From a virus (Duplodnaviria > Heunggongvirae > Uroviricota > Caudoviricetes): 36,094 bases of DNA. The DNA is taken from IMG/VR virus record IMGVR_UViG_2869947659_000011; one strand, 5' to 3'. The stretch's first letter is position 1; each line of letters starts with the position of its first letter. The position numbers and the translations under genes are program-made. The notes below the pieces were generated by a model. That model had not been told where the DNA came from. It saw only the letters and a program-made list of their open reading frames with translations, and ran no database searches. Positions 13,069 through 36,094 of the stretch are shown piece by piece.

Positions 13069-13098
13069 AAAACCGCTAATGGTCAGATTAGCGGTTTT
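13069..13098. terminator. Perfect 12-bp-stem hairpin between the convergent U and invertase genes (bidirectional terminator candidate)
   Basis: AAAACCGCTAAT-GGTCAG-ATTAGCGGTTTT; the right arm overlaps the last codons of the invertase gene. Confidence 0.5.
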
Positions 13099-13687
13099 CA
13101 TTTTCCTGAGTCTGCCCGGTTGTTTCTTCAGTCTGTATATCGCCTACAGGGTGATAACGATAAATCGTCGATGTGCCAATGCCGTAAATTATTGCCAGTT
13201 GTTTTCTGTCGTGCCCGTTTTTGATTAGCCTTGCTATTTGCTCATGCTGTTCTTTTGTCAGCTTCGGTCGACGTCCGCCTGTGCGCCCCCTTGCGCGCGC
13301 TGCCGCCAGCCCGGCCAGTGTACGTTCAACAATTAATTCACGTTCCATTTCAGCCAGGGCACCCATCACGTGGAAGAAAAAACGCCCCATTGGAGAAGAT
13401 GTGTCTATGCTGTCGGTCAGACTGCGAAAATTAATCCCTCGCTCCCGTAGTTCCCCGACGAGAGAAATCAGATGTTTCATGCTTCGCCCGAGGCGATCCA
13501 GTTTCCAGACAACCAGCGTGTCACCTTTTTGAAGGCGCTTTAAAGCGCGTTTTAATCCCGGTCGGTCTGTCTTTGTCCCGCTTAATTTATCTTCAAATAT
13601 TTGTTCACATCCTGCACAAACAAGAGCGTTTCGTTGCAGGTCTGTATTCTGGTCATTTGTTGATACCCTTACATAGCCAATCAGCAC
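13088..13687 (-). CDS. Serine DNA invertase, Gin/Cin/Pin/Hin family
   Basis: From the GTG at 13687 the product begins MLIGYVRVSTNDQNTDLQRNALVCAGCEQIFEDKLSGTKTDRPGLKRAL..., which closely matches the remembered N-termini of Mu Gin and e14 Pin (catalytic Ser in YVRVST, C-terminal HTH). The track start (TTG at 13705) is probably 6 codons too long. Confidence 0.9.
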   Translation of the reverse strand: MLIGYVRVSTNDQNTDLQRNALVCAGCEQIFEDKLSGTKTDRPGLKRALKRLQKGDTLVVWKLDRLGRSMKHLISLVGELRERGINFRSLTDSIDTSSPMGRFFFHVMGALAEMERELIVERTLAGLAAARARGRTGGRRPKLTKEQHEQIARLIKNGHDRKQLAIIYGIGTSTIYRYHPVGDIQTEETTGQTQENENR

Positions 13688-13741
13688 ACTGAATCTCCCG
13701 TCCAAAAGCGCAAATCATGCCATGCAGGCCAGAAACGGCCA

Positions 13742-17706: not shown

Positions 17707-17708
17707 GC

Positions 17709-18239
17709 TTAATCGCCTGGATAAATGGTAATAACTTCACCGTCATAAGTTGCCGCCGCTGCGAAAATATCCCCCGGAATTTCCTGAATGATATTCAGCC
17801 CTGTCATGTGGCGGCTGACCGGGCGGGCATCAGCAATCAACCGCTCCATTTCCAGATACATTTCCTCCGTCACGCCACTGTCCAGCGTGCCGACTTCAAC
17901 GGTAAATGTTCCCGGTTCTCCGCCGAACTCCCACCACTCAGACACGCGAATGAGGTATCCCAGCGGCTCAATGGCCCAGCGCAGTGCGCTGATGGTCCCT
18001 TTGTGTCGGTGTATCAGCCATGCATCACGAATAACCTGTCGCTTTGTCTCTTCCGGCCAGTTGCGATCCCAGCGGTCAACGGAAAACGCCCAGGCGAGAT
18101 AAGGCAGCAGATGCACCGGGCAGGTGTCCGGCGACCACAGCGTGTTGAGGTCTACCGGAATGTCTGTAATGCGTGTTCCGACGGCTTCGGCACAACGCAT
18201 GAAATTGCTGGCTGATGGTGGTAACAACGAATTACTCAT
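17709..18239 (-). CDS. I: Baseplate assembly protein (P2 gpI-like)
   Basis: Track ORF 17709..18272; start taken at the ATG at 18239 (MSNSLLPP..), giving 176 aa as in P2 I; position between J and H. Confidence 0.78.
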   Translation of the reverse strand: MSNSLLPPSASNFMRCAEAVGTRITDIPVDLNTLWSPDTCPVHLLPYLAWAFSVDRWDRNWPEETKRQVIRDAWLIHRHKGTISALRWAIEPLGYLIRVSEWWEFGGEPGTFTVEVGTLDSGVTEEMYLEMERLIADARPVSRHMTGLNIIQEIPGDIFAAAATYDGEVITIYPGD

Positions 18240-19128
18240 TGCGTCCACCTTCGCTGATGGTGAATGACTCACAGCGCGCCGCCTGTATGTCGCTGATGGC
18301 CATATTCTGTGTGGGTTCGATTATCTCCACGCGTTGCACACCGTGCACATGCAGTGCGGCAGCAATGGCGGACAACGCCACGTCCTGACCGATAAGCCCC
18401 TGCTCAGCCAGCCACTTCCTGAACGACGATTCAGCCGCGGCCAGAATAGGTTCGGATTCCGGGCCGGGGTAAAAGTACAGTTTTGCATTCAGCCGCCATG
18501 TCACGATTCTGGCACTCTGTACGGTCAGGCGGTCGGCCACCGGGCGGGTATCCTCTGCATTCAGAACGGCGCGAACGGTATTAAGCAACGCCTCCGTTGC
18601 TGTGCCGTCGCCCTCAGTGGACAGGATGGAAACCGTCACGTTGGCCGGAGACGGGCTGATGGCCCGCGCATCGCGTACCAGACCGCTGGCGCTGCGTGCA
18701 AAATACTCGTATGCACCTGACGGGCCAGCAACACTCAGACCGTCATATGCCCGTTGCGCCCGTAGTCTCAGCGAGGTGTCACTTTCCATCACTGCATCGG
18801 TGGTATCCGTTGCCGGAGTGATAACCAGGCGCTTTGTGTTCATATTGCCCGCGAGGTTGTCCAGGTCTGTCCCGGCGCTGTGGCTTAGCATGCAGGCGCG
18901 TGCACCCTCATTGACCCGCTGGCGTAACAGCATTTCACGAAACGACATGGTTTGAGCGATAACGTTAAGGGGTTCCGATTCCAGCTCCAGCGCGGCGGAA
19001 ACGGCTTCACGCTGTTCGGCGGGATAGGACGCAATCATCATGGCCTTTGTGTCAGCCAGAATTGCCTCAAAGTCAGGCTCCGCGATGATGGCGGGTTCCG
19101 GTAACTGTGAAAGGTCAACGGCAGGCAT
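18232..19128 (-). CDS. J: Baseplate assembly protein (P2 gpJ-like)
   Basis: 298-aa ORF; size and position in the V-W-J-I-H block. Confidence 0.82.
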   Translation of the reverse strand: MPAVDLSQLPEPAIIAEPDFEAILADTKAMMIASYPAEQREAVSAALELESEPLNVIAQTMSFREMLLRQRVNEGARACMLSHSAGTDLDNLAGNMNTKRLVITPATDTTDAVMESDTSLRLRAQRAYDGLSVAGPSGAYEYFARSASGLVRDARAISPSPANVTVSILSTEGDGTATEALLNTVRAVLNAEDTRPVADRLTVQSARIVTWRLNAKLYFYPGPESEPILAAAESSFRKWLAEQGLIGQDVALSAIAAALHVHGVQRVEIIEPTQNMAISDIQAARCESFTISEGGRNE

Positions 19129-19131
19129 GAT

Positions 19132-19482
19132 TTACTCCCTCAGCGTGATGGTTAATTCAACATTCTGCATGGTCTGCATGACAGTGCCCGACAGCGTCAC
19201 CCCGGCGCGGCCTCCTGCCTTCCAGACAACGTCGATAGCGTCCAGGGCAATGCGGGGTTCCCATCGTGTCAGCGCAATCACGGCAGCACTCATGCATTGC
19301 AGACGCGTGGTGTTATTCATGGGTTCGTCAATCAAATCAGGCACAAGGCTGCCATATTCCCGTCGCATAACCCGGCTTGCCAGCGGGGTGGTCAGGATGT
19401 CCCTGACTGACTGTTTCAGGTGCTCCATATCGTTCAGGTTTCCCGTTCCGTCCGGGTTCATTCCTGTGTAGCGGGTTGTCAC
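19132..19482 (-). CDS. W: Baseplate wedge protein (P2 gpW-like)
   Basis: 116-aa ORF; size and position match P2 W. Confidence 0.82.
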   Translation of the reverse strand: MTTRYTGMNPDGTGNLNDMEHLKQSVRDILTTPLASRVMRREYGSLVPDLIDEPMNNTTRLQCMSAAVIALTRWEPRIALDAIDVVWKAGGRAGVTLSGTVMQTMQNVELTITLRE

Positions 19483-20060
19483 TGCGGGCCTCCTGTCGAA
19501 TCGCTGCCACCTTTAACGCCACCGTGTTTATGCGTATGCACTGTGATGCCGTTTGAGGTGAAATTGCCGCCGCTGTGCGTGATATTGCCGCTCATCTTTC
19601 CCCCTTTTGTGACGTCAAGCGTCGCCGTTCTCAGAAGGTCTGTGCATTCCACGACGGGTGTATCCAGTGTCACGCTGACGGATGCCTGCAGGGTGGCTGT
19701 TTTCATGCCGCTGGCGCTCAGTGCGCCTGCGTCCGCGTCGTAGCGGAACACCGCGCCATCCGGCGCGCTGACCACGATTTCTTTCAGGCTTTTGCCGGGG
19801 GCCGGAATGGCATCACTCCACAGGCTGCCAATTATCATGGCGGTTTCCGGGTTGCCGCCAATGCAGGCAATTACCACCTGTTCGCCTGGTGATGGCGGCA
19901 GCCACACATTGAAGGCTCCCGCGCGAGAGGTGTTCCAGCGCAGCCAACCTGTTTCCAGTTCGCCGCTGCGAACGCGCACGCGCCAGGACTTCTCATCAAC
20001 TTCAGAGATGATCCCGGTGCGGATGATATTGCTCAGTAGCCGCATGAGTTCTGCGCTCAC
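19479..20060 (-). CDS. V: Baseplate spike protein (P2 gpV-like)
   Basis: 193-aa ORF; OB-fold-like N-terminus and Gly-rich C-terminal tip (..HTHKHGGVKGGSDSTGGPQ); position before W. Confidence 0.82.
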   Translation of the reverse strand: MSAELMRLLSNIIRTGIISEVDEKSWRVRVRSGELETGWLRWNTSRAGAFNVWLPPSPGEQVVIACIGGNPETAMIIGSLWSDAIPAPGKSLKEIVVSAPDGAVFRYDADAGALSASGMKTATLQASVSVTLDTPVVECTDLLRTATLDVTKGGKMSGNITHSGGNFTSNGITVHTHKHGGVKGGSDSTGGPQ

Positions 20061-20701
20061 CGTACAGCCTCCGCAATCCGGCCCAGCACCGTGTTATAAA
20101 TCAGGCGCTCATCTGCCTGGCTGATACCCAGCAGCTCACGTACCGGGTAATCGGTGAAAATGCCCGGCGCAACCTGATCGCGCTCACCGAACTGATGAAC
20201 GCGTGCAATACGTGCGGCCACGCCGCTGTAACCCACCGTCACACCGGAAGCATCTGCACGGGCTTTCAGGTAGCGGGCGGTGCGCAGTTTTACGAACATG
20301 GGGACGCGCTTTGTGCTGTCCTGGTTGATGCGCCGGGTGCGTATTTCCAGAAAGCGGTCGATGTCATCCCGGTAAAACGTGCGGATGCTGTTTTTATCCT
20401 CATCCCACCCGGTGATGGTTCGCCCGTATTTCCCCGTGTCGTGATGCCAGTTTTTCAGCGTGCGTGCTTCGTTATTCCAGATAAAGCGAATGCGCTCCTG
20501 TATCCGGGTTACGTGGCGTCTGCGTGGTGTCCATGCGGTCCCGTCCGGCGCTTTCTGTGACCGGATACGTGCCTGCTGGGCGCGGCGTAAATCCTGTGCC
20601 AGCTTTCTGGCGATGTTATTGATGGCCTGCTGATTCAGGCTGTCGCGGATGGCCTCAAAGGTTTCATCCACGCGAGTGAATGCCTTATCCATCGCTTTCA
20701 C
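20057..20701 (-). CDS. S: Tail completion / virion morphogenesis protein (P2 gpS-like)
   Basis: 214-aa ORF between R and V; longer than P2 S (150 aa), assigned mainly by position. Confidence 0.65.
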   Translation of the reverse strand: MKAMDKAFTRVDETFEAIRDSLNQQAINNIARKLAQDLRRAQQARIRSQKAPDGTAWTPRRRHVTRIQERIRFIWNNEARTLKNWHHDTGKYGRTITGWDEDKNSIRTFYRDDIDRFLEIRTRRINQDSTKRVPMFVKLRTARYLKARADASGVTVGYSGVAARIARVHQFGERDQVAPGIFTDYPVRELLGISQADERLIYNTVLGRIAEAVR

Positions 20702-21152
20702 CCCACGTCACATCCTGGAATACATGCGACCAGTCGCCTTCGGAAGATGGCAGGCGGGGTTTTGGCTCCAGCAGGTGTTCTGCCTGCGGTGTGCCCTGAC
20801 TGCTGCGCGTGATGCGAACGCGTTCCCGCAGGGGGAGCGTAAACAGGAGATCGGCGCTGTCATCGTCATTGATAACGGCGGAAAATTTGATGTCCTGATT
20901 ACGCTCAGGGTTGAGCAACAACTGTGGCTGATTTTCGGATAACCACGCCAGCAGCGGCAGCGTGAGGTCGTCCAGCTCCCCGGCGTAATCCATGACAAAC
21001 ATCACCATCTGATAGCGGTAAACAAACGATGGGGTTTCTCCGGTCGTTTCAATGTTGCCGCTCTCCACGAAAATGGTGAATTTTTCCGGGTTAGCCTGAC
21101 ACCATCGGCATGAACGGGTCATGGCTTCACGCAGGGAATCAGTTTTCAGCAT
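20685..21152 (-). CDS. R: Tail completion protein (P2 gpR-like)
   Basis: 155-aa ORF, the same length as P2 R, directly after the lysis cassette. Confidence 0.7.
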   Translation of the reverse strand: MLKTDSLREAMTRSCRWCQANPEKFTIFVESGNIETTGETPSFVYRYQMVMFVMDYAGELDDLTLPLLAWLSENQPQLLLNPERNQDIKFSAVINDDDSADLLFTLPLRERVRITRSSQGTPQAEHLLEPKPRLPSSEGDWSHVFQDVTWGESDG

Positions 21153-21429
21153 GGTTGTTATCCTCGTTGTTCAGTCGTTGCAGCCTGCGCTGTTCCAGTA
21201 ATTCAATGGCCCGTTTATCCGCGTTACAGGTTTCCAGTGCATCCAGAAGGCGGTCGCCCCATATACCGAGATTTCCCCATGTGGGAGTGTCAGGGAAGGG
21301 GGGAGGCGTTACCGGTATGGTCAGCGTCTGCGGTATAAGCCGGACTGACGGCGCTGGCAGTGGCGCGTTCTGCGTGCCTGCGCAGCCTGTCAGTAAAACG
21401 AGCGTCAGGCAAAGCGTGGGCGCATTCAT
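21139..21429 (-). CDS. lysC: o-spanin (LysC/Rz1-like outer-membrane lipoprotein), overlapping the i-spanin gene
   Basis: From the internal ATG at 21429: MNAPTLCLTLVLLTGCAG.. (signal peptide with LTGC lipobox) followed by a Pro-rich region; overlaps the 3' half of lysB in another frame and extends beyond it, as in P2 lysB/lysC. Confidence 0.65.
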   Translation of the reverse strand: MNAPTLCLTLVLLTGCAGTQNAPLPAPSVRLIPQTLTIPVTPPPFPDTPTWGNLGIWGDRLLDALETCNADKRAIELLEQRRLQRLNNEDNNHAEN

Positions 21430-21697
21430 CTTTTGCAATATCGTTGCGTAGCTGTTCACGTCTTACCTCTCCGTCCTGATTGCGTTGCTGATTTTCCACG
21501 CGGAGTTGCGCCAGCACCTGCTGCATATCCTGTACCCCGGCGCTGATGATATTCAGGGTGTCGGCGGTACTTTTCAGGGTGCTGGCCTGCGCTTCGTTTC
21601 TGGCGTTCTCCCGGCCCAGCGACCACGACAGACGCATGGATGTTCCCCATCCGGCAGTCAGAAGGAAAGCGACGCCAAGCGTGGGCCAGAGCTTCAT
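21290..21697 (-). CDS. lysB: i-spanin (LysB/Rz-like)
   Basis: From the ATG at 21697: MKLWPTLGVAFLLTAGWG.. (N-terminal transmembrane helix) then a coiled-coil-like region; start overlaps the endolysin stop. Confidence 0.65.
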   Translation of the reverse strand: MKLWPTLGVAFLLTAGWGTSMRLSWSLGRENARNEAQASTLKSTADTLNIISAGVQDMQQVLAQLRVENQQRNQDGEVRREQLRNDIAKDECAHALPDARFTDRLRRHAERATASAVSPAYTADADHTGNASPLP

Positions 21698-22086
21698 GCC
21701 GGATAGGCTCCGTGTGGTAACTGAAAATGCGGTCCGTCTTTCAGGGTCTTCCAGTCGCCGCCCCATTCCACCGGAATATTCAGTTCCCGGCTGGCCTGTC
21801 TGAATGCTGCTGCGATTTTTTCGTACAGCGGCCATTCCCATGACATCTGGCTGCCGATATAAGCCACAACATCCACGGCATGCCCCGTAAGGTGGCGGCT
21901 GTTCATGGTCTGGCTCTTACCCGTGGCCACCAGTTGCTTCTGGCGGTAACGGCTGCGCAACCCTTCGGTGATACCAAAATCCACTTCCGAGATTTCCAGT
22001 GCCCGTCGGGTCACTTTCACCAGATCAGGATTTACACCCTGCAAATTCTTTTCGCTCCGGCTGCTGAATTTAAATGTGTTGCTCAT
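21694..22086 (-). CDS. Endolysin, peptidase M15 (L-alanyl-D-glutamate peptidase / VanY-like) type
   Basis: 130-aa ORF with SRHLTGHAVDV.. and a later His, the H-x6-D...H zinc site arrangement I associate with M15 peptidases such as the T5 endolysin; sits where P2 has lysozyme K. Confidence 0.7.
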   Translation of the reverse strand: MSNTFKFSSRSEKNLQGVNPDLVKVTRRALEISEVDFGITEGLRSRYRQKQLVATGKSQTMNSRHLTGHAVDVVAYIGSQMSWEWPLYEKIAAAFRQASRELNIPVEWGGDWKTLKDGPHFQLPHGAYPA

Positions 22087-22406
22087 TCGTCCTTCTCCTT
22101 CACCCTGCGATTAAAGGCCGCAATAACCTTGTCGCGTGCTTTCTCTGCACCCATAAAACCGATTGATGCGCCGATAAACGTCACGGCATCTTCAGGAAAC
22201 CCGAAGAAGCGCAACGACCCGGCCACGGCCATGGCAAGAACGCCGCACGCCAGCGATCCCGTTACGGTCTGAACCAGTGTTCGTCCGTCATAAAGGCTCA
22301 TCAGCGCGGAAATGCTGACCGCCGCGCCTACTGCATACACCGTTGGCAGGTGGTCAAAGAGCCACGCAATAACCTGCTCTGTGATCCCTGTTTGAATGGT
22401 GCTCAC
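22083..22406 (-). CDS. Holin (P2 gpY position)
   Basis: Track ORF 22083..22625 is over-extended. Start taken at the GTG at 22406, which has a GGGGGGAG Shine-Dalgarno 5 nt upstream. The product has two or three hydrophobic helices (..AVSISALMSLY.., ..GSLACGVLAMAVAGSL.., ..TFIGASIGFMG..) and a basic C-terminus. Confidence 0.6.
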   Translation of the reverse strand: MSTIQTGITEQVIAWLFDHLPTVYAVGAAVSISALMSLYDGRTLVQTVTGSLACGVLAMAVAGSLRFFGFPEDAVTFIGASIGFMGAEKARDKVIAAFNRRVKEKDE

Positions 22407-22408
22407 TG

Positions 22409-22609
22409 CTACTCCCCCCACAACTGAATCATTTCTCGTTTCTTCTTCTCCGGCTCCGGCATCTCCACTTCCTGCCCGGCGTCCAGAAATACCTGCTGAC
22501 AGAGTCCGGGGTTGGCATCCAGCACCTTTTCGGTGACGCCCTGCGTCGTGCCGTAGTACCGGAAACAGAGCGAATCCACGGTGTCGCCTTCCAGTGCCTT
22601 CACTTTCAT
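22409..22609 (-). CDS. X: Tail protein X (P2 gpX-like, LysM-like)
   Basis: From the ATG at 22609: MKVKALEGDTVDSLCFRYYGTTQGVTEKVLDANPGL.. resembles P2 X (..GDTLDAICVRYYGRTEGVVETVLAANPGL..); 66 aa. Confidence 0.75.
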   Translation of the reverse strand: MKVKALEGDTVDSLCFRYYGTTQGVTEKVLDANPGLCQQVFLDAGQEVEMPEPEKKKREMIQLWGE

Positions 22610-23103
22610 CAGCACAACTCCGCAAAGATTCGCGGGCGGCACAGAATGTCAGAGATGGCCCAGCTCACATCACGCCACAAATCCGATGTCTGTATATCCA
22701 GAGCGTCTGCCCGGCGGTCGCCCTTGTCCGTAGTGTCTGCATCACGATAACGCTCCAGAATCAGGGCGCGCGTGGCGGTATAAACAGCATTGCGCCAGTG
22801 CCAGAGATTGACGCTTTCTCCGTTAATTACGGGTGCCGGAACATCGGCCAGCGTCTGATGGCCAGCTGCCTGCTGTTCCTGCTGCCATGCTTCCAGCTCG
22901 CGGGTAACGTGTGCCACAGCCCCGGTGGCAGTATGCAGCAGGCGGGAGGTGGTCACGCGCCCCGGCAGTCGTACCGCCAGACGCAGCTCGCGCAGCACAA
23001 TATCCGGCCAGAATGCACCCGCTGAAATGCGGGTATCGCCATCATCGGTATCGGTGATGTCGTCCTCTGCGGGTCCGGGTTCAGTTCTGGCAACCATAGT
23101 CAT
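22609..23103 (-). CDS. L: Head completion/stabilisation protein (P2 gpL-like)
   Basis: Start taken at the ATG at 23103 (MTMVARTEP..), about 164 aa; position between M and X. Confidence 0.75.
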   Translation of the reverse strand: MTMVARTEPGPAEDDITDTDDGDTRISAGAFWPDIVLRELRLAVRLPGRVTTSRLLHTATGAVAHVTRELEAWQQEQQAAGHQTLADVPAPVINGESVNLWHWRNAVYTATRALILERYRDADTTDKGDRRADALDIQTSDLWRDVSWAISDILCRPRIFAELC

Positions 23104-23199
23104 GGGGTTCACTCCTGAAAAAAAATCGGGCGGTGGGTGCGCGGTGTAAACGGTCACGGAGTCAAACCGGAACACCGCGCACGCCGCCCGCTGACGGGG

Positions 23200-24027
23200 T
23201 CAGTCGTTAACCGCGCTTCGCCTTCTGCGTCGCGGTGGTTTTTCGTGTTGCAGGCTTCCGCGTTGTCTTTTTACTTTTGCTGCTTTTTGCTGCTTTTTGC
23301 TGCTTTCGTCCTGCGCCTGCTGTGCGCTGGCGTCTTCTGGTTCGGCTGCGGAATCGGCTTTTTTCAGGGCGCGGGAAAGGGTTGCAATCTCGCGTTTCAC
23401 ACCTGCGTTCGGGTTCAGGTGCATTGCTTCGCGCAGCAGCTTCAGTGACAGGGCCATGCTGTCCGCATCACTCAGGCCACGGCGGGCAAAGGCGCACGCT
23501 TTGCATAATTTGGCGCGCACTTCGTCCGGCATGTCCTGGTCGGTGACAATCTCCCGGAGGGTGTCCAGTGGTTCGATAAAGGCGGACAAATCCGCGTCGG
23601 CATCCGTCCCGGCCTGCGTCAGTACCGGATTACAGATTTCTTCGGTCAGTACCGTGGCAGCAGTACGGCCAAAGTTATCCGGCATGATGAGGTTGTGACG
23701 GACTACATACGCGCCGATACGCAGCGCAAGCGGAAGATCGCCACAGTCAATCGCCCACACCATCAGCGTGGCAATCACTTCATCCTGCTGCCCGCCGTCA
23801 GCCTCCAGCGTTCCCTCAATCCAGCCGGAAAAATCCGGCAACAACTCTTTTTTGATGGCGGCTTTCGCGCTTCTGGCCTGTACGCCCTTAAGCCGGGCCT
23901 GTGCCAGACGCAGACGATACAGCACCTCTTCATGCGCGGTACGCGCGGCGTGGTCCACGCCTTCATTCGCCCGGCCTGCGCGCTGTGCCATCACGTTCTG
24001 CCAGTGTTGTTGTGCAGGAGTAATCAT
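23200..24027 (-). CDS. M: Terminase small (endonuclease) subunit (P2 gpM-like)
   Basis: 275-aa ORF after the capsid gene; basic Lys/Arg-rich C-terminal tail encoded partly by a 10-bp tandem repeat (23274..23305). Confidence 0.78.
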   Translation of the reverse strand: MITPAQQHWQNVMAQRAGRANEGVDHAARTAHEEVLYRLRLAQARLKGVQARSAKAAIKKELLPDFSGWIEGTLEADGGQQDEVIATLMVWAIDCGDLPLALRIGAYVVRHNLIMPDNFGRTAATVLTEEICNPVLTQAGTDADADLSAFIEPLDTLREIVTDQDMPDEVRAKLCKACAFARRGLSDADSMALSLKLLREAMHLNPNAGVKREIATLSRALKKADSAAEPEDASAQQAQDESSKKQQKAAKVKRQRGSLQHEKPPRRRRRSAVND

Positions 24028-24072
24028 TTTTGCTCTCCGTTACAGGCGGGCATGATGCCCGCCGTGAGTTGA

Positions 24073-25124
24073 TTAGCTGTCGGCGAACTTCAGGCCAGTA
24101 ACCATCGCGCACTTGCCATAGTCTTCAACGACATAAGCGTCATTGATGGACTGGTAGGTGGCGATGCGGTTGTATTCCGGCTCGTCTTTCATCAGGCGAC
24201 GCATTGAACCTTTCTGCCAGTAAATCGACAGGTTGTTGAACGAGGTGATCAGCATCGTTGCATCCGGGAAGAACGGCGCAAGGAACACGCCCAGCCCGCC
24301 AATGGTGCGCGATGACAGGATGAGCTGCCCGGCGAGTAATTCCGCATTGGGATTCTGGCCGCTGATGCTGTTCAGCACGGGCAGACGCAGCGAGTTAAAC
24401 AGGTTGCGCCCCATAATCACCACGAGGTCGTCAGCTTCCTTGTGCCATTCATCCAGCAGGGATGAACGCGCGTCCTGTACCAGTGCATCAGCGTTCGCAT
24501 ACTTACCCGCGTGCGCCACGGTGTTGTCCATGTTGCGGGAGGTCAGCGTCACGTCATTCATAACGCGTTCGCTGGCGTCGGTTCTGATGTGCTCCAGCCA
24601 GCCCACGTTAACGTCCTGAAGCAGCTTGTTGGTGCTGAAGTTGGACTCATCCGCGTGAGACGTGCCGTTGAAACCGATCATGATGCGGTCAAGCGCCACC
24701 TGTCGGGCAATCTGTGCGCTGATGCGGGACTGAAAATCAGGGTGTGCCGACCAGGCATCAAGCTGCGGATACGAAATAAACGTGTCGTAGTTCACCTGTT
24801 CACACTGATATTTGCGGTTTTTCAGATCAACCACGTTATTCGGGTTACGGCGTTTTGTGCCGTCATAACTGGTATTCGTGCGCGCAATCGGTCCTGTGGT
24901 ATCCAGGAGGATTTTTTCGCCTTTCTGGTCGGTCACGCCGATCACGTTATTTTTTTCGTAAATTCGGTACTTTCCTTTGAGGCGTTTTCAAAACGCTGCT
25001 GCACCGCGGGTTCCACGGTAAATCGCGACACCAGTGCAGATACCGGGATATTATTAAGCGACGCCTGCTGCGCCATATAGCAACCCAGCTTGTTGCGGGT
25101 AATATCTGACATCACCAGATTCAT
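24073..25124 (-). pseudogene. N: Major capsid protein (P2 gpN-like), frameshifted near 24942..24960
   Basis: Track ORFs 24942..25124 (60 aa, ..SALVSRFTVEPAVQQ..) and 24073..24945 (290 aa, ..MIGFNGTS.., ..VGWLEH..) resemble the N- and C-terminal parts of P2 N. The frame change falls at or beside a T7/A7 homopolymer (24950..24956). Confidence 0.8.
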
Positions 25125-25147
25125 AAAAAATTTGCTCCTTTGTCTAA

Positions 25148-25978
25148 TCAGAAGTCGGCCAGCTGGTCGGAGGCTGCGCCCGTTGCGGTGAAGCGGTTCT
25201 GCGGATCGCCGTCCTGCGTGCGCAGTTTTTCCTTCAGTGCTGCCAGCTCTGTGGTCAGTGACGTAATTTTCTGGCGGTCCTGCTGATGGCGGGTTTCCAG
25301 CACATTAAAACGGTCGATAATGTCGGCCTGTGACGTTGCGACGCCTTCCACCGCTTCCTGAATACGGGAAAAACTGGCGTCATCCGCTTTGCGGCCACGG
25401 CCAATAATCCCCATTACGCGGTTAAACCACTGGGTGCCTTCTTCCTGGTGTTGTTCTGCCATTTCGATGATTTCAGACTCGATGGCTTCGGAGATAAGCG
25501 GCGCTTCACCCTGGATACTGTTAAACGTCATCACCGCCTGACGTTGCTGTGCCGTGAATTTCAGGCGCTCAGTGCCCAGGCTTGCCGGGGTGTCGGTCAT
25601 CGCCAGCCCGACCAGATAGGCGCGCCCGTTAACGGAGAACTGCGGGTGCAGTTCGATACTGGAATAGATTTTCTTGCCGTCCGCAACAAGCTGCTTCATG
25701 CGCTCGGTCGGTTCGATTTCTGCATACAGCGCAGTACGTCCGGCCAGCGGACCTTCCGTAATGTCTTCCGTACTCAGTGCGGTGACATCGCCCATTGCGG
25801 AAAATTCGCTTGACGGGCATGGCGAGAGATAGTGCTCAACGTTCACGCGGGCAGCGTAAACATCCGGGTTGAAGTTCTCGGCGGCTTCACGCAGATGCAC
25901 CGGACTGATTTCACGGCCATCAACAGTTGATCCGGAGACAGCCACGCGAAACTTTTTGCGGGATGTCTTTTTTTTCAT
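25148..25978 (-). CDS. O: Capsid scaffolding protein (P2 gpO-like)
   Basis: 276-aa ORF divergent from the terminase gene; size matches P2 O (284 aa). Confidence 0.82.
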   Translation of the reverse strand: MKKKTSRKKFRVAVSGSTVDGREISPVHLREAAENFNPDVYAARVNVEHYLSPCPSSEFSAMGDVTALSTEDITEGPLAGRTALYAEIEPTERMKQLVADGKKIYSSIELHPQFSVNGRAYLVGLAMTDTPASLGTERLKFTAQQRQAVMTFNSIQGEAPLISEAIESEIIEMAEQHQEEGTQWFNRVMGIIGRGRKADDASFSRIQEAVEGVATSQADIIDRFNVLETRHQQDRQKITSLTTELAALKEKLRTQDGDPQNRFTATGAASDQLADF

Positions 25979-26139
25979 TAGCCATAGTTTTTGCCCCTCT
26001 GACTGGTTCTTCAGTTATGATGGCAAAGCGTAACAGGCTGATACAAAGGGCTTTTGTTGTAAGAAAACGGCCAGAACAGAGGGTTAAGGAGAACAGTTTC
26101 GCGCGCGGGTAATCTTCCTGTAATTACTCAGGGGGAGCA

Positions 26140-27891
26140 ATGATTCAGGACGCTTTTGTGCGCCAGCGTGCGCGGCAACTTTACTGGCAGGGTTATCCGC
26201 CCGCAGAAATATCACGTCTGATGGGAATAAACCCGAACACGATTTATGCGTGGAAAAAACGTGACCAGTGGGATGAAACGCCACCCGGGCAGCGTGTCAC
26301 GCAGTCCATCGATGCGCGCCTCATCCAGCTTACTGAAAAACAGAATAAAACAGGCGGTGACTTTAAGGAAATAGACCTGCTGACCCGGCAGCTTAAAAAG
26401 CTGCATGATGGCCAGCCGGATGTGATGGCCGCAGGAAAGAAAGGCCGGGCGAAAAAACTCAAAAATCATTTCACGCCGGAACAGATTGCCGCACTGCGGG
26501 AAAAAATCATCAGCAGGCTGGAGTGGCATCAGCGGGGCTGGTTTGACTCCCTGACCCTTTGCAGGGAAGCCGGGATACGTAACAGGATGATCCTGAAATC
26601 CCGACAGATTGGGGCGACCTGGTATTTTGCACAGGAAGTACTGCTGATGGCGCTGCGTGACGATGTGGCGCAACCTTACCAGCGTAACCAGATTTTTTTG
26701 TCTGCGTCGCGTCGTCAGGCGTTCCAGTTTAAAAGCATTATTCAGAAGGCCGCGGCTGAAGTTGATGTGGAGCTGAAAGGGGGCGATAAAATCATCCTCT
26801 CCAACGGCGCAGAGCTGCATTTTCTCGGCACTTCTGCTGCGTCGGCACAGTCCTATACGGGCAATTTTTATTTTGATGAATTTTTCTGGGTCAGTCGCTT
26901 TGCTGAACTGCGCAAGGTGGCTGGCGCTATGGCAACCCTCAGCGGACTGCGGCGCACCTACTTCTCCACGCCATCCACCGAAACGCACGAGGCATACGCC
27001 TACTGGAACGGCGACCGCTGGAACGAGAAAAAGGCCTCGCATAAACGCCAGCGTTTTTCTGTGGACTGGAAAACGCTGCATAACGGGCTTATCTGCCCTG
27101 ACCGGACGTGGCGGCAAATTGTCACGCTGGAAGATGTGGTTAATCACGGCTGGAAACACACCGATATCGACGAAATTCGTGATGAAAACACCGAAGACGA
27201 GTTCCTCAATCTCTATATGTGTGAGTTTGTCCGCGAAGGGGAATCGGCATTTAACCTGAATATCCTGATTGGCTGCGGCGTTGACGGATACGACGACTGG
27301 AAAGACTGGAAACCTTTTGCTCCCCGCCCGATGGGGAATCGTCCGGTATGGATTGGGTATGACGCAAACGGCAGCAGTGGCAACGGCGACAGCGGCGCTG
27401 TGTCCGTGGTGGTTCCTCCGTCTGTTCCTGGTGGCCGTTTTCGAACGGTGGAGACGCGACGCGTTCAGGGGCTGGAGTTTGAAGAACAGGCCAGAGTCAT
27501 TGAAGAGTTCACGTGTCGCTACAACGTGGAACACATCGGCATTGATGTGACGGGCGGGAACGGGGAGGCTGTTTATCAGATAGTGAAACGGTTTTTCCCT
27601 GCCGCTATTCCGTACACCTTCACGCTGTCATCAAAACGGTCGCTGGTACTGAAAATGCTGCAAATAATGCGTGCCGGGCGGTGGGAATACGATCGCGCCG
27701 AACGCGAGCTGGTCGCGGCCTTTAACGCCGTGCGTAAGGTGAAAACACCGGGCGGCTTTATCACTTACGAAACGGACCGAGCGAGGGGGATCAGCCACGG
27801 CGACCTTGCGTGGGCAACCATGCTTGCTGTCATTAACGAACCGATTGGCGGCGAAGGAGAAAACGAGCGTTTCACGGTTATGGAGTTCTGA
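26140..27891 (+). CDS. P: Terminase large (ATPase) subunit (P2 gpP-like)
   Basis: 583-aa ORF (P2 P is about 590 aa) with an N-terminal HTH-like region and a central ATPase/nuclease region; divergent from O as in P2. Confidence 0.88.
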   Translation: MIQDAFVRQRARQLYWQGYPPAEISRLMGINPNTIYAWKKRDQWDETPPGQRVTQSIDARLIQLTEKQNKTGGDFKEIDLLTRQLKKLHDGQPDVMAAGKKGRAKKLKNHFTPEQIAALREKIISRLEWHQRGWFDSLTLCREAGIRNRMILKSRQIGATWYFAQEVLLMALRDDVAQPYQRNQIFLSASRRQAFQFKSIIQKAAAEVDVELKGGDKIILSNGAELHFLGTSAASAQSYTGNFYFDEFFWVSRFAELRKVAGAMATLSGLRRTYFSTPSTETHEAYAYWNGDRWNEKKASHKRQRFSVDWKTLHNGLICPDRTWRQIVTLEDVVNHGWKHTDIDEIRDENTEDEFLNLYMCEFVREGESAFNLNILIGCGVDGYDDWKDWKPFAPRPMGNRPVWIGYDANGSSGNGDSGAVSVVVPPSVPGGRFRTVETRRVQGLEFEEQARVIEEFTCRYNVEHIGIDVTGGNGEAVYQIVKRFFPAAIPYTFTLSSKRSLVLKMLQIMRAGRWEYDRAERELVAAFNAVRKVKTPGGFITYETDRARGISHGDLAWATMLAVINEPIGGEGENERFTVMEF

Positions 27892-28937
27892 TGAGCAGAA
27901 AAAATAAAAAAGTGCGCATGAGTTCACGCATTGATCTCGCTGATGCGCTCAGGAAAGAATCATCGCTCAGTGCATTCACATTTGATGGTCCTTATCGCCT
28001 GACCGGGCATGACCTGCTGGACAATATGTACTGTGCTGATAACGGGCGGTGGTATGAAACCCCGGTGGACTGGTACGGTCTGGCAAGAGCTGCCCGGCAA
28101 ACGTCCTGGCATCAGTCTGCGCTTTATTTTAAGCGCAATGTATTGCTCGGTTGCTACATCCCGCACCCGCTGCTTTCCCGGCAGGATTTCTCGGCGCTGG
28201 CGCTGGACTGGTTTGTGTTCGGTAACGCATTCCTTGAGCTTCGAAGCAATATGCTCGGCGAACCGCTTAAATTACGGCACGCCCTGGCGAAATACATGCG
28301 ACGCGGAAGCGATCTTGAATCATGGAGGTATGTGCAGGATGGCAAGGATGCGTTTCAGTTTCGCCCAGGCAAAGTGTGTCACCTGATGAATCCTGACATT
28401 AACCAGGAAATCTACGGCATGCCGGAATATCTCGGCGCATTACTCTCGGCCAGCCTGTCTCATTCGGCGGACATGTTCAGAAAACTGTATTACGACAACG
28501 GATCCCACGCCGGGTGCATCATCTACATCGGTGCCGCGCAGGTAAACCGCGAAAGCATGGACTCCCTGAAAGAAACGCTACAGGGTGCGCGTGGTGGTGG
28601 TGCGTTTAAAAACGTGCTCATTCATGCGCCCAACGGGGGCAAAGAGGGGGTGCAAATTTTGCCGTTCCAGCAGATCACCGCAAAGGATGAGTTCATGAAT
28701 GTTAAGGCGGCATCCCGTGATGATGTGCTGGCTGCGCACCGCGTTCCGCCGCAACTGATGGGGGCGATGCCGGGTGAAAAAAGTGCGTTTGGTGATGTGG
28801 AGAAGGCCGCGCGGGTTTACGCAATTAACGAGCTGATGCCCGTCATGGAGGCCATGAAGCACATCAATGACTGGCTTGGCGAAGAGGTGATCCGCTTTAA
28901 CCCTTACGCACTGTTAGACATCCAGCCCACATCCTGA
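27891..28937 (+). CDS. Q: Portal protein (P2 gpQ-like)
   Basis: 348-aa ORF starting on the P stop (ATGA overlap); P2 Q is 344 aa. Confidence 0.85.
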   Translation: MSRKNKKVRMSSRIDLADALRKESSLSAFTFDGPYRLTGHDLLDNMYCADNGRWYETPVDWYGLARAARQTSWHQSALYFKRNVLLGCYIPHPLLSRQDFSALALDWFVFGNAFLELRSNMLGEPLKLRHALAKYMRRGSDLESWRYVQDGKDAFQFRPGKVCHLMNPDINQEIYGMPEYLGALLSASLSHSADMFRKLYYDNGSHAGCIIYIGAAQVNRESMDSLKETLQGARGGGAFKNVLIHAPNGGKEGVQILPFQQITAKDEFMNVKAASRDDVLAAHRVPPQLMGAMPGEKSAFGDVEKAARVYAINELMPVMEAMKHINDWLGEEVIRFNPYALLDIQPTS

Positions 28938-29427
28938 CGCGCTTCGCTTGTCTGCTGCTTCGCCGGGGCATAAAAAATTTATGCCCCGACTCTCCAGCTC
29001 CTGTATCAGTCAGATAATTTCACGACGCCTTCCAGTTTATCGCCACCATCGACGGTCAGACTCTTACGCAATCCCACCGCGTTGACTGCATGTTCTCGCC
29101 GCCTCAGTGCGATTTTGACGGCCTTACCTTTCACCCCATCAAATCAGAATCCCTCACGTATTTTTCACGCTCAGCGTGAGAAATACGGCCATTCTGTCGT
29201 GTCGCTGCGACATCGTTAAGGGAACGCTATTTACCCCCTGAAACGCGGGCTGTTCCCCCGTCACCTGCGCGCAGAAAAAGCGCGTTTTTTTGTGCACGCA
29301 CGGATCCTTGACGGATCCAGCCGCCACGCGGGCTGGAAGGGCAAAAATTCGTTCAAAAAAATTGTGCAAATTTGTGCACTATTGTGCAGCAGGGCGATGT
29401 GCGATTATCGCCCTGGTTTGAGGGGGA

Positions 29428-30018
29428 TCAGGTGTTATTTTTATCTGTCGTCAGTGGGCTAAACCATCCACAATTTACATCGCATGACTGATGCGTTCTG
29501 TCCTCGTGTTTCTCCTGCCACAATGCTTTTCCGCCAGCCTTTATGATGGCTCTTTCAACATCCCGCTCGTATCGCAAGGGCTGAAATACGTCATTAATGA
29601 AATATTCGCTTATGTCCGGAAGCGATACTGCAAAATTATTTGTTTGTTGCGCCGTCCTGCTATGCAGCAAAGCGGCATGCTTTAATGCGTCCTGTGCTTT
29701 CTGGAATTTAAGTGCATAGTCAGTGGCGATTTTTTCCAGTTCAGCGATTCGGTTGTCTTTGGTTTCCAGCCAATCAAGTAGCGCCAATACTTCAGGATCC
29801 CCGACATCCAACACTGTTACGCGTGATTTTTCATAATGTTCGTCAGCAAGAGTTCGGCCAATTTTGAAATCTCCATCATCACCATAACCGGAGCAGGCAT
29901 AAACAACCTGTGCTCCAGATATTCGCTGAATTGACATTTCCTCGCCGCAAATAGGGCATTTCGGTACTGGCACAGGTGAATAACGTTCACGTAATGCCTG
30001 ATAGTTGATTTCGCTCAT
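29428..30018 (-). CDS. Hypothetical protein with N-terminal CPIC zinc-ribbon-like motif (196 aa)
   Basis: ORF with a strong Shine-Dalgarno (AAGGAG 9 nt upstream of the ATG at 30018); MSEINYQALRERYSPVPVPKCPICGEEM..; 63 nt downstream of the ParR-like gene on the same strand. Confidence 0.5.
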   Translation of the reverse strand: MSEINYQALRERYSPVPVPKCPICGEEMSIQRISGAQVVYACSGYGDDGDFKIGRTLADEHYEKSRVTVLDVGDPEVLALLDWLETKDNRIAELEKIATDYALKFQKAQDALKHAALLHSRTAQQTNNFAVSLPDISEYFINDVFQPLRYERDVERAIIKAGGKALWQEKHEDRTHQSCDVNCGWFSPLTTDKNNT

Positions 30019-30081
30019 TAAGTCGTTCTCCTTGTTTATGTTCTGAGGTGGAGAGCAGGGCGAACTCGCCCTGATGTTGTG

Positions 30082-30393
30082 TTATTCAGGAAATAACGCC
30101 CGGATATTTCCGGCCATCTGACTGGTTATCTGTGCGGTTGATACTGGCTGTGATGCGGGGCGTTCTGTCCTGGTTTGTGTCACTGATAACGCTTCATCAC
30201 CAGCCCATGCAGCCAGTCGATAAGCCTCTGCCGGATTCATTTTCAGAAGTGCCAGCCCGGCCAGAAAAGCCACGCGTTGGCCGCTTTTGCGGGCTTCTGG
30301 TGTAAGGCTGTCCAGCCAGGCGCATGCTTCTCCTTCGTTCTTGACGGCGGTGGGCTTCAGATAGAAACTTATCCGTCTGGTTGGAGTCGTCAT
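30082..30393 (-). CDS. ParR/StbB-like DNA-binding partner of the ParM-like gene
   Basis: From the ATG at 30393 (GGAG Shine-Dalgarno upstream, overlaps the parM-like stop): MTTPTRRISFYLKPTAVKNEGEACAWLDSLTPEARKSGQRVAFLAGLALL.. resembles R1 ParR (..FKLNPDVNQ.., ..RSRLNRAALTAGLALY..) as remembered. Confidence 0.5.
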   Translation of the reverse strand: MTTPTRRISFYLKPTAVKNEGEACAWLDSLTPEARKSGQRVAFLAGLALLKMNPAEAYRLAAWAGDEALSVTQTRTERPASQPVSTAQITSQMAGNIRALFPE

Positions 30394-30397
30394 TGGT

Positions 30398-31003
30398 TTA
30401 CTCCTTGTCCATTGCGTACAGCCCATTAACCAGAGCAAACTGTGGCACCCCGTCCGCGATGAAAGTCGCATTAACTCCGCAGGCTTCGCGGATAGCGGGT
30501 GCCACAATCTCCGCCCCTCCACCGACAACCATCACCCGCCCGTAACCCGAAAAACCTGCCAGCGCGCGGATCACGCGTTGTTTCAGTGTTTCTTCCTTTT
30601 CACGAATTACCGCCATCAGGCTGGCGTAATGCGCGTCATTGTGGATGTGCTGGCGCAGCCAGGCTTCATCATGGCGATGTTCGATAATGGTATTGGCGAT
30701 GTGGTGACTGGTGCGCATACCGTTAGTGGCCATCACCGACAGTACGGCATCGGCCATCAGAGAAACGCCCACGTGTGGATCGCAAAACACCTGGCTGATA
30801 CCTGCCAGTTGCCCCTGAACCTTTGCCACATCCAGCGTGGTTCCGCCCAAATCCACAATCAGCAGGGATTCAAACGGACTCATGTCAGCCAGTGCCTTAA
30901 AGCCAGCCGGAATGGATTCAGGCATAACCCGTACGTTACGGATAGTGAATGCTTCGCCGTTCTGGTACTCCACCGGGCGCATGACGTTCGCTTTTTTGCG
31001 GTT
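30398..31003 (-). pseudogene. ParM/StbA-like actin-family ATPase, N-terminal third removed by the IS911 boundary
   Basis: ..LIVDLGGTTLDVAKVQGQLAGISQVFCDPHVGVSLMADAV.. ..RVMVVGGGAEIVAPAIRE.. ..FALVNGLYAM.. matches the C-terminal about 200 aa of ParM as remembered; the track ORF begins inside the IS911 terminus. Confidence 0.7.
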
Positions 31004-31011
31004 TGAAGTGG

Positions 31012-32180
<1,169 letters not shown>

Positions 32181-32253
32181 TGGAGCACCTGTGTTGTTCT
32201 GAGGTGAGCATATCACCTCTGTTCAGGTGGCCAAATTCAGTGTGCCACTTCAA

Positions 32254-32517
32254 ACCGAAGAACACGGCGGTGCGGAGTCCGGAGAGTAACGGAATAGCAG
32301 AGAGCTTCGTGAAAACGATAAAGCGTGACTACATCAGTATCATGCCCAAACCAGACGGGTTAACGGCAGCAAAGAACCTTGCAGAGGCGTTCGAGCATTA
32401 TAACGAATGGCATCCGCATAGTGCGCTGGGTTATCACTCGCCACGGGAATATCTGCGGCAGCGGGCTTGTAATGGGTTAAGTGATAACAGATGTCTGGAA
32501 ATATAGGGGCAAATCCA
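32254..32517 (+). mobile_element. Truncated IS2 copy (3'-terminal 264 bp only)
   Basis: Sequence from AACCGAAGAACACGGCGGTGCGGAG.. to ..GGAAATATAGGGGCAAATCCA matches the IS2 right end (compare 1469..1732, a few substitutions); the left 1067 bp are absent and IS911 abuts the break. Confidence 0.9.
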
Positions 32518-32716
32518 CTGCGGCACAGATCAGCTCGGAAAGTTCGTTAAGTGCATCCAGATCATCAGCGTAAAAAGCCACCTCATACAGACTTCGGATT
32601 GCTCTGGTCAATGAGTCACGGGCCGCACGTTCAGCATGAGCGCCTGATGCACTTAAGCGAAAATAAAAACGCTCAAGTGCTTTGTTAATGAGAGTTTTAT
32701 ATTCTTTGCCCATCAC
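32518..32716 (-). pseudogene. Hypothetical early-region gene, 3' end truncated by the IS2 right end
   Basis: Track ORF 32477..32716 (MMGKEYKTLINKALERFYFRLSASGAHAERAARDSLTRAIRSLYEVAFYADDLDALNELSELICAAVD..) runs into IS2 and ends with the same IS2-derived tail ([11 protein letters not shown]) seen on the disrupted ogr. Confidence 0.4.
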
Positions 32717-32724
32717 AACGCCCT

Positions 32725-33015
32725 TTAATCTGCTTTCTGTATTTCAGCTTCTGAATCCATACAAATAATTTCGATATAGGGTTCATCGCCATTAACCTGG
32801 CGTGCCTTTTCAGCTTCGCTAATGATTTCTCGTACGGTCTGGTACGGAAGTTCCACAAGCAGTCGCGTGCCGTTCAGATAAACGTAAGTGGCTTCGTCGG
32901 CTCCGTTTTTACCCGCCGGAGTCACTCCGTCAATAGCGGATGCACGTAATAACAGTTCACCGCGAAAATCAATAAAACGGATAAATACACCTTGTGCATG
33001 GTCTTTGGTCATAAA
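32725..33015 (-). CDS. Hypothetical early-operon protein
   Basis: Start taken at the ATG at 33015 (MTKDHAQGVFIRFIDFRGELLL..); co-directional with cox-like gene; no family recognised. Confidence 0.35.
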   Translation of the reverse strand, partial: FMTKDHAQGVFIRFIDFRGELLLRASAIDGVTPAGKNGADEATYVYLNGTRLLVELPYQTVREIISEAEKARQVNGDEPYIEIICMDSEAEIQKAD

Positions 33016-33022
33016 GCACCTG

Positions 33023-33361
33023 TTATAAATCAGTCTGTTTAATAAAACTTTGCCCGCGAAGCAGACGATCAACCGTGCGAAGTGCTTCGTATAATGTGAA
33101 ATCCTGCCCGAACTGATTGTCGCCACAGCTCAATGCAAAAATGCGGTTTCCGGTAAACGGATTGCGTGGGCATTTGTGGATCACGATTCCAGCTTTCTCA
33201 ATCAGCCAGGTGTGCTCGCCGATTTGTTTTACTGGGTAGCCATCCTGCGTTGCGTGTGTATCACTCAGGCTGTAGCGGATGTTGCTGCGTGATGCACTGG
33301 TAGTGAAACGGTTAGCGTGGCGTTCTGTTCCGGTACGAAAATTACGGCGTTGCTTCAGCAT
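33023..33361 (-). CDS. Hypothetical early-operon protein
   Basis: 112-aa ORF directly after the cox-like gene; no family recognised. Confidence 0.4.
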   Translation of the reverse strand: MLKQRRNFRTGTERHANRFTTSASRSNIRYSLSDTHATQDGYPVKQIGEHTWLIEKAGIVIHKCPRNPFTGNRIFALSCGDNQFGQDFTLYEALRTVDRLLRGQSFIKQTDL

Positions 33362-35237: not shown

Positions 35238-36094
35238 TGTACTGGCAATAGCGGACACTACCATTTGTTCTTTTTTTAAGCAGCCATCTGATGATATTTT
35301 TCCCTGAAGGCTGCCGGGGATATATTCCCCAGACGAGAGTGACGACGCTGACGATTGTAGAAAATCTCAATGTATTCCCGTATTACTGAGATGGCTTCAT
35401 CCCGGTTATTAAAACGATAGTGGCTCAGGCTCTCATTTTTCAGCGTTCCCCAGAAGCTTTCCATCGGAGCGTTGTCGTAACAGTGACCTTTACGCGACAT
35501 TGATGTTTTCAGACCAGACTGCTCCTGTATGACCCGGTAATCGTATGCGCAGTACTGTGAACCTCGATCAGAGTGGTGGATTAGCCCGGTAGGTGGGCGC
35601 TGGCTCCTGAGCGCCATAAACAGGGCTTTACCTGTCAGCTCTTTTGTCATGCGCTCTCCCATGGTGTAGCCGACAATTTCGCACGTATAAACATCTTTGA
35701 TGCCAGCGAGGTACAACCATCCCTCCTGTGTGGCAACATACGTCAGGTCCGCCACCCAGACCTGATTTGGTGCTGTAGGAGCGAACGTCTGGTTCAGCAG
35801 ATTTGGCGCAACTGGCAGATTGTGGTTCGGGTTCGTAGTCGCTCTGAACTTGCGTTTCTGCTTACAGCGTAGCCTTAGCTCCTTACGAAGACGTGCCAGT
35901 CGGTCACGACCAACGATGATGCCATTCTCTGCCAGCTCCGTCTGGAGCCGCCGGGTTCCATATGTTTCGCGAGTGCGGATATGTGCCACCTTAATCTCCA
36001 GTTTTAGCCGCTCATCACTTTGTTTTCTGTCTGAGGGTTCATGCTGTACCCAGTTGTAATAACCGCTCCTGGATACACCAAATACCTGACACAT
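35238..36094 (-). mobile_element. IS3-family insertion sequence (IS150-like), truncated by the window edge
   Basis: The terminus begins TGTACTGG.. about 40 bp beyond the transposase stop; only the OrfB side is in the window. The end coordinate is approximate. Confidence 0.75.
35276..36094 (-). CDS. IS3-family transposase OrfB (DDE integrase domain), partial at window edge
   Basis: 272-aa ORF with ..QVWVADLTYVATQEGWLYLAGIKDVYTCEIVGY.. HHSDRGSQYCA.. CYDNAPMESFW.., typical IS3-family OrfB. Confidence 0.85.
   Translation of the reverse strand: MCQVFGVSRSGYYNWVQHEPSDRKQSDERLKLEIKVAHIRTRETYGTRRLQTELAENGIIVGRDRLARLRKELRLRCKQKRKFRATTNPNHNLPVAPNLLNQTFAPTAPNQVWVADLTYVATQEGWLYLAGIKDVYTCEIVGYTMGERMTKELTGKALFMALRSQRPPTGLIHHSDRGSQYCAYDYRVIQEQSGLKTSMSRKGHCYDNAPMESFWGTLKNESLSHYRFNNRDEAISVIREYIEIFYNRQRRHSRLGNISPAAFREKYHQMAA

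Follow-up and report, generated by a model that had tools for sequence, protein, structure and literature searches.

An IS-truncated copy of a common ParMR cassette in a P88-like prophage

Organisation of the locus

The window, by which we mean the whole analysed stretch of 36,094 nucleotides, carries on its minus strand the 3' part of a parM gene followed by parR, with a cargo gene, the expected cos site and the portal and terminase genes on one side and two insertion sequences on the other (Table 1). A preliminary description of this DNA had recognised a ParM-like ATPase by two sequence motifs, LIVDLGGTTLDVA and VMVVGGGAEIV. Both are present in the minus-strand open reading frame 30398..31018, and the assignment is confirmed by Pfam: residues 46-203 of the reading frame correspond to the C-terminal domain of ParM (PF21523, 232 bits) and residues 6-44 to the final 39 positions of PF06406, its N-terminal domain. 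In an NCBIfam search the matches to ParM and PRTRC models were far below threshold and none was obtained for ParR. The fragment covers 63% of the 319-aa protein, which agrees with the 'C-terminal two-thirds' given earlier. It has no start codon and lacks DDGSTN (residues 6-11 of ParM), the phosphate-1 motif, whereas intact relatives possess all four motifs of the actin-fold ATPases (phosphate-1, catalytic, phosphate-2 and adenosine). Within the end of IS911, an in-frame TTG (31018) opens a reading frame of 206 aa. Compared with the corresponding part of the E. coli M19 prophage (locus L001, 13099-13704), a single synonymous difference was found in 606 nt.

Table 1. Features of the parM-parR remnant and its neighbourhood, in coordinates of the window.
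Feature	Position	Strand	Remarks
Terminase large subunit	26140-27891	+	P2-family prophage context
Portal	27891-28937	+	P2-family prophage context
Intergenic stretch, portal to cargo	28938..29427		Expected cos site; conserved in all Xuanwuvirus records
Ead/Ea22-like gene	29428..30018	-	PF13935, E 2.1e-32; variable hotspot cargo
parR	30082..30393	-	Intact 103-aa ORF; ribbon-helix-helix-type adaptor, StbB/ParR family
3' parM fragment	30398..31003	-	Codons 119-319 and stop; PF21523, E 4.6e-69
IS911	31004..32252	-	1249 bp; orfA 31878-32216, orfB 31012-31851
3' part of IS2	32253..32517	+	265 bp (IS2 positions 1067-1331); IS911 inserted in IS2
Surviving early-operon genes past the deletion	32518..33327	-	98.1% identity to L001 18939-19748

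The second gene encodes an adaptor of the StbB family directly 3' of parM. It matches PF10784 (Plasmid_stab_B, E 3.4e-23) and PHROG 2515 ('partition protein', E 1.7e-57) and is 100% identical to ParR of the M19 prophage. Its description as an overlapping ParR-like gene was thus correct in the identity of the product but not in the overlap, since the stop codon of parM (30398-30400) and the ATG of parR (30393) are separated by a gap of 4 nt, as they are in the RefSeq calls of intact copies. For comparison with plasmid R1 we used the R1 ParR sequence, which has 100% matches to a widespread plasmid protein that is encoded beside parM (for example at locus L013). The phage ParR is 31% identical to this sequence over the first 67 aa (E 1e-8), and a C-terminal tail of the type (K)N(I/V/A)xxL(F/I)P is common to the phage, R1 and IncL/M proteins in the alignment and may be the peptide that docks on ParM. 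A sequence search of the PDB with ParR gave no match, and the AlphaFold2 model calculated from the single sequence (pLDDT 49.8) was too low in confidence to be used.

The P2-family prophage context proposed earlier is borne out by 97.7% identity between positions 17278-31003 of the window and positions 1-13704 of L001, and together with the match past the deletion the window is collinear with a P88-like backbone, in the gene order of P88, from which gpA itself is deleted. Since the window contains no host gene, it does not by itself show that the prophage is integrated. The gene that follows parR had been taken for a zinc-ribbon ORF, but all zinc-ribbon matches of the reading frame 29428-30018 in Pfam are sub-threshold and the product is Ead/Ea22-like. 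Nor is it the third member of a three-gene unit: the gene after parR belongs to 19 unrelated sequence clusters among 70 IMG/VR loci (17 of the 70 have an Ead-like gene), and other genes take its place in P88, phiSM, pZ1323PEC0009-2 and the ST131 and EcPF14 prophages. The G+C content is 45% for the Ead-like gene, 55% for parMR and 56% for the structural-gene backbone. The Ead-like gene is a separate cargo and not a part of the par cassette.

In the stretch that separates portal and cargo, the heptamer TTGTGCA is repeated three times with a spacing of 10 bp (29362-29388), with a further copy at 29290. These repeats were considered as an alternative parC and rejected; they adjoin cos in every Xuanwuvirus record and occur as well in Enterobacter phage phiT5282H, in which the stretch is partly conserved and parMR is absent. 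A 186-type cos 19-mer had no match within three mismatches, and cos is therefore placed to the interval only. Rousset et al. 2022 likewise located cos between portal and cargo (PMC9122126). A scan of the whole window with Rfam at gathering thresholds returned no family and hence no hok/sok RNA model.

Loss of the 5' part of parM by an IS-associated deletion

The element next to parM is a complete IS911 with terminal inverted repeats (TGAAGTGG), orfA and orfB. It is 99.7% identical to a sequence that carries the RefSeq label 'IS3-like element IS911 family transposase' and contains the Pfam domains HTH_Tnp_1 and rve. Its end at 31004 adjoins the parM fragment directly, and in this respect the truncation by IS911 was described correctly; a simple insertion of IS911 into parM, however, is not what we find. 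The nucleotides flanking the element are GTT and AAC, and a target-site duplication is absent. One flank is parM and the other is the interior of an IS2, and since these are unrelated, the junction must have arisen by deletion or recombination rather than by simple insertion. The IS2 piece is labelled as IS2 in RefSeq, has an rve_3 domain and is 99.2% identical to the end of a complete IS2 at positions 402-1732 of the window.

Beyond the two insertion sequences the match to the M19 prophage resumes at position 32518 (L001 18939), so that synteny is broken between L001 13704 and 18939 and ~5.2 kb are lost relative to the intact prophage. The lost segment comprises codons 1-118 of parM, the 76-bp upstream region with both palindromes described below, the 2.8-kb gene A for the replication endonuclease and about seven early genes. 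The surviving early genes, among them a DUF4761 gene (33023-33361, E 3.4e-68), mark the far edge of the loss. Because a Shigella boydii contig has the same parM/IS911 junction, the deletion is a feature of a lineage and not an assembly accident of one window. The one synonymous difference from M19 indicates that the event was recent. Without gene A the prophage cannot replicate as a phage.

ParM cannot be made from the locus in the window. With an incomplete ATPase and no upstream region left, the module is dead and does not belong to a working ParMRC system, in accordance with the earlier statement that it is inactivated. The prophage as a whole is rich in IS elements, decaying and replication-defective.

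The intact cassette is a conserved part of P88-like phages

Intact versions of the cassette, for which the preliminary description had suggested to look, were found in P88-like phages and in hundreds of E. coli prophages. In every P88-like (Xuanwuvirus) phage that we examined, parM-parR is located 76 bp 3' of gpA, and the complete order is gpA, 76 bp, parM (319 aa), parR (103-104 aa), one or more variable genes, cos and portal. This order is shared by E. coli M19, P88, Citrobacter phage phiSM, 503458 and pZ1323PEC0009-2 as well as by O157:H7, ST131 and EcPF14 prophages, and the position assigned earlier to the module, between the replication gene A and cos, is therefore the regular one. P88 is the type of the genus Xuanwuvirus. 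The DNA of the cassette in the window is 93-100% identical to that of P88, P884B11, phiSM, 520873 and 503458.

A parMR query was present in 1308 of 5426 complete E. coli genomes (24%), and of the 1456 places at which it matched 1454 were chromosomal. In IMG/VR, 249 viral contigs encode the ParM protein, counted in a scan whose matches were all 99% or more identical. In a set of 50,697 phage records, an R1-like ParM is confined to members of Xuanwuvirus and the phage-plasmid D6. The seven parM alleles sampled are all intact, with pairwise dN/dS values of 0.0-0.17, and parM is under strong purifying selection. ParR varies to a larger degree: its allele classes are mosaic and only 51% identical to one another, yet the first 14 residues (MTTPTRRISFYLKP) are identical in all of them.

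These data show that parM-parR is a fixed and selected part of the phage lineage, situated at the inner edge of a variable slot. The assumption of an unexpected plasmid-derived intruder does not hold in view of its presence in 24% of E. coli genomes, its backbone-like G+C content and the purifying selection; the cassette is native to the backbone. It is also already known: RefSeq and PHROGs annotate it, and it has been mentioned in print. Rousset et al. 2022 noted a 'putative plasmid partitioning system' in about one quarter of P2-like phages (PMC9122126), which is the same element at the same position between gpA and cargo; the copy in the window differs from it and from the other intact P88-like cassettes in being cut at codon 119 by the IS911/IS2-associated 5.2-kb deletion. 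The finding itself is ordinary, an IS-truncated copy of a common cassette.

Relation to plasmid and prophage segregation systems

A close relative among known systems is ParMRC of plasmids R1 and R100 (StbA/StbB, parA locus), whose gene order, parC-parM-parR, recurs in the phage cassette if the upstream palindromes are taken as a candidate parC. Over its whole extent, phage ParM can be aligned with R1 ParM at 46% identity (314 bits, E 1e-92 in a search against structures), and the motifs DDGSTN, PESIPAG, DLGGTT and GGGAE are at equivalent positions. The likeness of the ParR proteins concerns the N-terminal domain (31% identity) and the C-terminal KN(I/A)xxL(F/I) tail. On these grounds positions 30082-31003 of the window very probably represent what is left, in inactive form, of a type II (actin-like, R1 ParMRC/StbAB-type) partition system whose cassette is conserved in the P88-like backbone. 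[quoted passage not shown]

The nearest ParM of a true plasmid has ~52% protein identity and ~66% DNA identity. It is of the kind found on an IncL/M plasmid (52% identity to phage ParM), in which TATTTTTCT-type iteron repeats are present; such an array is lacking in the phages. The StbA-type ParM of the P1-like phage-plasmid D6 is 47.5% identical, but D6 is a 91-kb extrachromosomal plasmid prophage, whereas P88-like phages possess int and attP and occur in the integrated state. A further system, AlpA/AlpC/alpS of the Corynebacterium glutamicum prophage CGP3, likewise consists of an actin-like ATPase and a DNA-binding adaptor in an integrated prophage. It belongs to another host phylum and another phage type, and it serves here as a model for the possible function of the P88-like cassette. 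AlpAC acts on the excised, replicating phage DNA and not on a plasmid, and it is needed for efficient replication and transport of the phage DNA (PMC4446434, PMC5539076).

Candidate centromere upstream of parM

A parC-like iteron array had been expected upstream of intact copies of parM. An R1-style array is absent there, and intact copies show two palindromes only. These are part of a 38-nt direct repeat that occurs twice, 73 bp apart, with one copy in the 76-bp gap and the other inside the 3' end of gene A, so that the pair straddles the stop codon of A. Each repeat holds an imperfect 20-bp palindrome, aCGGGAyTyAnrAATCCyGT. The pair is unique in the 25.7 kb of the prophage (0 expected by chance). 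Comparison of 49 distinct upstream sequences shows hardly any change in the arms of the palindromes but variation at the central bases, and the palindromes do not change with the ParR allele. As the pair is unique, its arms are conserved and the alleles that share it also share the same ParR N-terminus, the two palindromes are reasonable candidates for ParR operators or for a minimal parC, a proposal drawn from sequence comparison. They are far fewer than the sites in characterised type II centromeres. The distal palindrome may not be specific for par because it forms part of the reading frame of A and is still there in a strain that has lost parM-parR by a precise deletion. In the window both palindromes are deleted and no other copy is present. 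A crude consensus scan of the coding strand between A and parM detected neither a sigma-70-like promoter nor an intrinsic terminator.

Possible role of the intact cassette and alternative explanations

Conserved, selected R1-type ParMR together with hok in integrative phages of the P2 family, in about one quarter of E. coli strains, raises the question of its role there. This question has been raised in the literature before and the truncated copy adds nothing to it. As our literature search found no experiment on any P2-family ParMR, the role can only be inferred. ParR dimers would bind the two 20-bp palindromes 73 bp apart, and ParM filaments capped by the ParR-DNA complexes may then drive copies of the circular phage genome away from each other. 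Of the roles considered, the likeliest, although short of probable, is that the cassette positions or disperses phage circles as they replicate following infection or induction, for which AlpAC in CGP3 is the demonstrated precedent. In the annotation of P88, the early transcription unit (cox...A) ends with parMR, and a replication-coupled role is favoured because expression is seemingly tied to the replication operon and because lysogens are integrated. In a wider form, which we hold more tentatively, the cassette may provide actin-driven DNA segregation from a minimal two-palindrome centromere, either as an AlpAC-like spindle or, in combination with hok, during a facultative plasmid-like stage. 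If this is true, an integrative rolling-circle phage of the P2 family gains an actin-driven segregation step.

The same cassette could serve plasmid maintenance proper, in that the prophage facultatively persists as a plasmid, ParMR segregates the episome and Hok kills cured cells. The window would then carry what remains of a phage-plasmid-type module. To our knowledge, plasmid segregation is the sole demonstrated function of R1-type ParMR, and hok/gef genes are present in the same phages (P88 gp52, pZ1323PEC0009-2 and positions 4-141 of the window). This explanation was suggested by Rousset et al. (PMC9122126), and the relationship to ParM of the phage-plasmid D6 is in agreement with it. A 34.5-kb circular PLSDB record, pZ1323PEC0009-2, was moreover deposited as a plasmid and contains an entire P88-like genome, int and attP included. 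It is the exception to a general lack of signs of extrachromosomal lysogeny, and a lone circular contig can come from spontaneous induction. A 700-bp query spanning attP of this circular record was split in all 440 matching genomes and intact in none, so that none of these genomes has an unsplit attP for this integrase type. The almost exclusively chromosomal places of parMR point in the same direction, as do the P88 annotation, in which the rolling-circle endonuclease A is present and a plasmid-type initiator is absent, and the apparent location of parMR in the C-repressed early operon. We therefore consider stable plasmid maintenance unlikely and on account of the attP result favour replication-coupled positioning over it.

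Other explanations have much less in their favour. The preliminary description had also considered an accessory system that uses an actin-like ATPase, and one might think of an anti-phage or anti-plasmid function of the P2 hotspot, for example exclusion by partition incompatibility. The cassette adjoins the gpA-gpQ defence hotspot (PMC9122126), and the mosaic ParR alleles with identities down to 51% resemble what is often seen in defence or specificity genes. However, none of the three products (ParM, ParR, Ead-like) has a match in PADLOC, parMR stays the same from phage to phage while the adjoining cargo varies, and ParM is strongly conserved, so that neither likeness to a known defence system nor variable presence is observed. 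The palindromes are unlike the iterons of R1 or IncL/M plasmids and cross-binding to these plasmids is thus not indicated. A defence role is improbable. A transfer of plasmid DNA into the prophage by the activity of IS911 and IS2 might be assumed from the IS elements flanking the fragment and from the typical occurrence of ParMR on IncF and IncL/M plasmids, but we regard it as next to impossible: IS-free intact copies reside at the same position in hundreds of prophages, the window remains collinear with intact prophages right up to the end of IS911, and no true plasmid ParM is closer than the distant relative mentioned above. Synteny with the intact prophages rules out capture by an IS element. 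Finally, the remnant itself could be active, with ParR and possibly an N-terminally truncated ParM being expressed by read-through from IS911 and acting as a regulator. The orfAB genes of IS911 share the strand with parM and parR, the TTG inside the IS end would provide a start for the 206-aa product, and parR is undamaged and does not differ from functional alleles. Its candidate target palindromes are nevertheless deleted, the truncated ParM lacks elements of domain I in addition to the phosphate-1 motif, and the near-zero divergence (1 nt) shows recency only and not selection, which makes an active remnant very improbable. The locus in the window is a pseudogene remnant for which 'parM (truncated) / parR of a P88-like prophage' is the fitting annotation.

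Variation and loss of the parM-parR cassette

The alleles of ParR were compared between three loci with divergent copies (L010 2241-2555, L011 2241-2555 and L012 2332-2646) and the intact prophage of E. coli M19 (L001 12783-13094). ParR falls into mosaic allele classes with a between-class identity of only 51%; the first 14 residues are identical in all classes, and all of them end in the C-terminal sequence NIxxLFPE. At the DNA level the similarity among the parR alleles stops ≈55 nt into the gene. The divergent ParR alleles adjoin near-identical ParM genes, and the palindromes upstream of parM are unchanged.

In one relative the cassette is missing altogether. The P88-like prophage of E. coli CUVET19-1704 precisely lacks parM-parR together with the proximal palindrome (positions 3484-3540 of locus L095), and the stop codon of gene A abuts the Ead-like gene at its ribosome-binding site. 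As this precise absence shows, the ≈1.4-kb cassette forms a discrete unit and is subject to loss.

A P88-like genome in circular form and the hok/gef gene

The circular 'plasmid' record pZ1323PEC0009-2 (NZ_CP148288.1; 34,461 bp), from an E. coli isolate of a cat, amounts to the whole genome of a P88-like phage: it has int and attP, a hok gene and a com/methyltransferase pair. The record may represent either an episome that is maintained in the isolate or the assembly of an induction product. Its Hok protein shares 97.8% identity with the product of the hok/gef-family toxin gene in the window (Table), and P88 has a hok/gef gene of its own, gp52. Since P88-like phages carry hok/gef as well as parM-parR, both classical stability loci of R1, parMRC and hok/sok, have counterparts there. 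A scan of the window against Rfam found neither the Sok nor the hok RNA family.

Table. Positions of further features of the prophage (window coordinates unless stated otherwise)
Feature	Position	Strand	Remarks
hok/gef-family toxin gene	4-141	-	Pfam HOK_GEF, E 4e-7
Complete IS2	402-1732		1331 bp; between hok and ogr; 5-bp duplication ACGGG
IS1	1998-2768
Large ORF	2841-5960	-	1039 aa; 33% G+C; N-terminal region hydrophobic
Serine DNA invertase gene	13088-13705
Tail-fibre segment	13738-16007		adjoins invertase gene
Single (fourth) TTGTGCA	29290		72 bp from triple array
Triple TTGTGCA	29362-29388		exactly 10-bp spacing; adjoins presumed cos
IS911-in-IS2 junction	31004-32517
Further IS3-family element	35276-36094		adjoins int
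TTGTGCA copies in L001	11991 and 12063-12089		L001 coordinates

Other features of the prophage

The closest match to the window prophage is a Shigella boydii contig, and the heavy load of insertion sequences fits the expectation for a Shigella-type genome. The tail-fibre segment has opposite orientations in the window and in this contig; together with the adjacent invertase gene it looks like a Gin/Cin-type host-range switch of which both orientations have been captured.

A second cargo site, between ogr and gpD, is occupied by the 1039-aa ORF, for which no match was found in Pfam, PADLOC, NCBIfam, PHROGs or the PDB sequences. Only 5 of the 5426 E. coli genomes carry it; the RefSeq label there is 'MFS transporter' or hypothetical. 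The ORF represents an uncharacterised accessory gene of the prophage and possibly a candidate defence gene.

The TTGTGCA repeats are kept in all Xuanwuvirus records and also in Enterobacter phage phiT5282H, which is devoid of parMR; their probable role is that of an accessory site in packaging or for the terminase.
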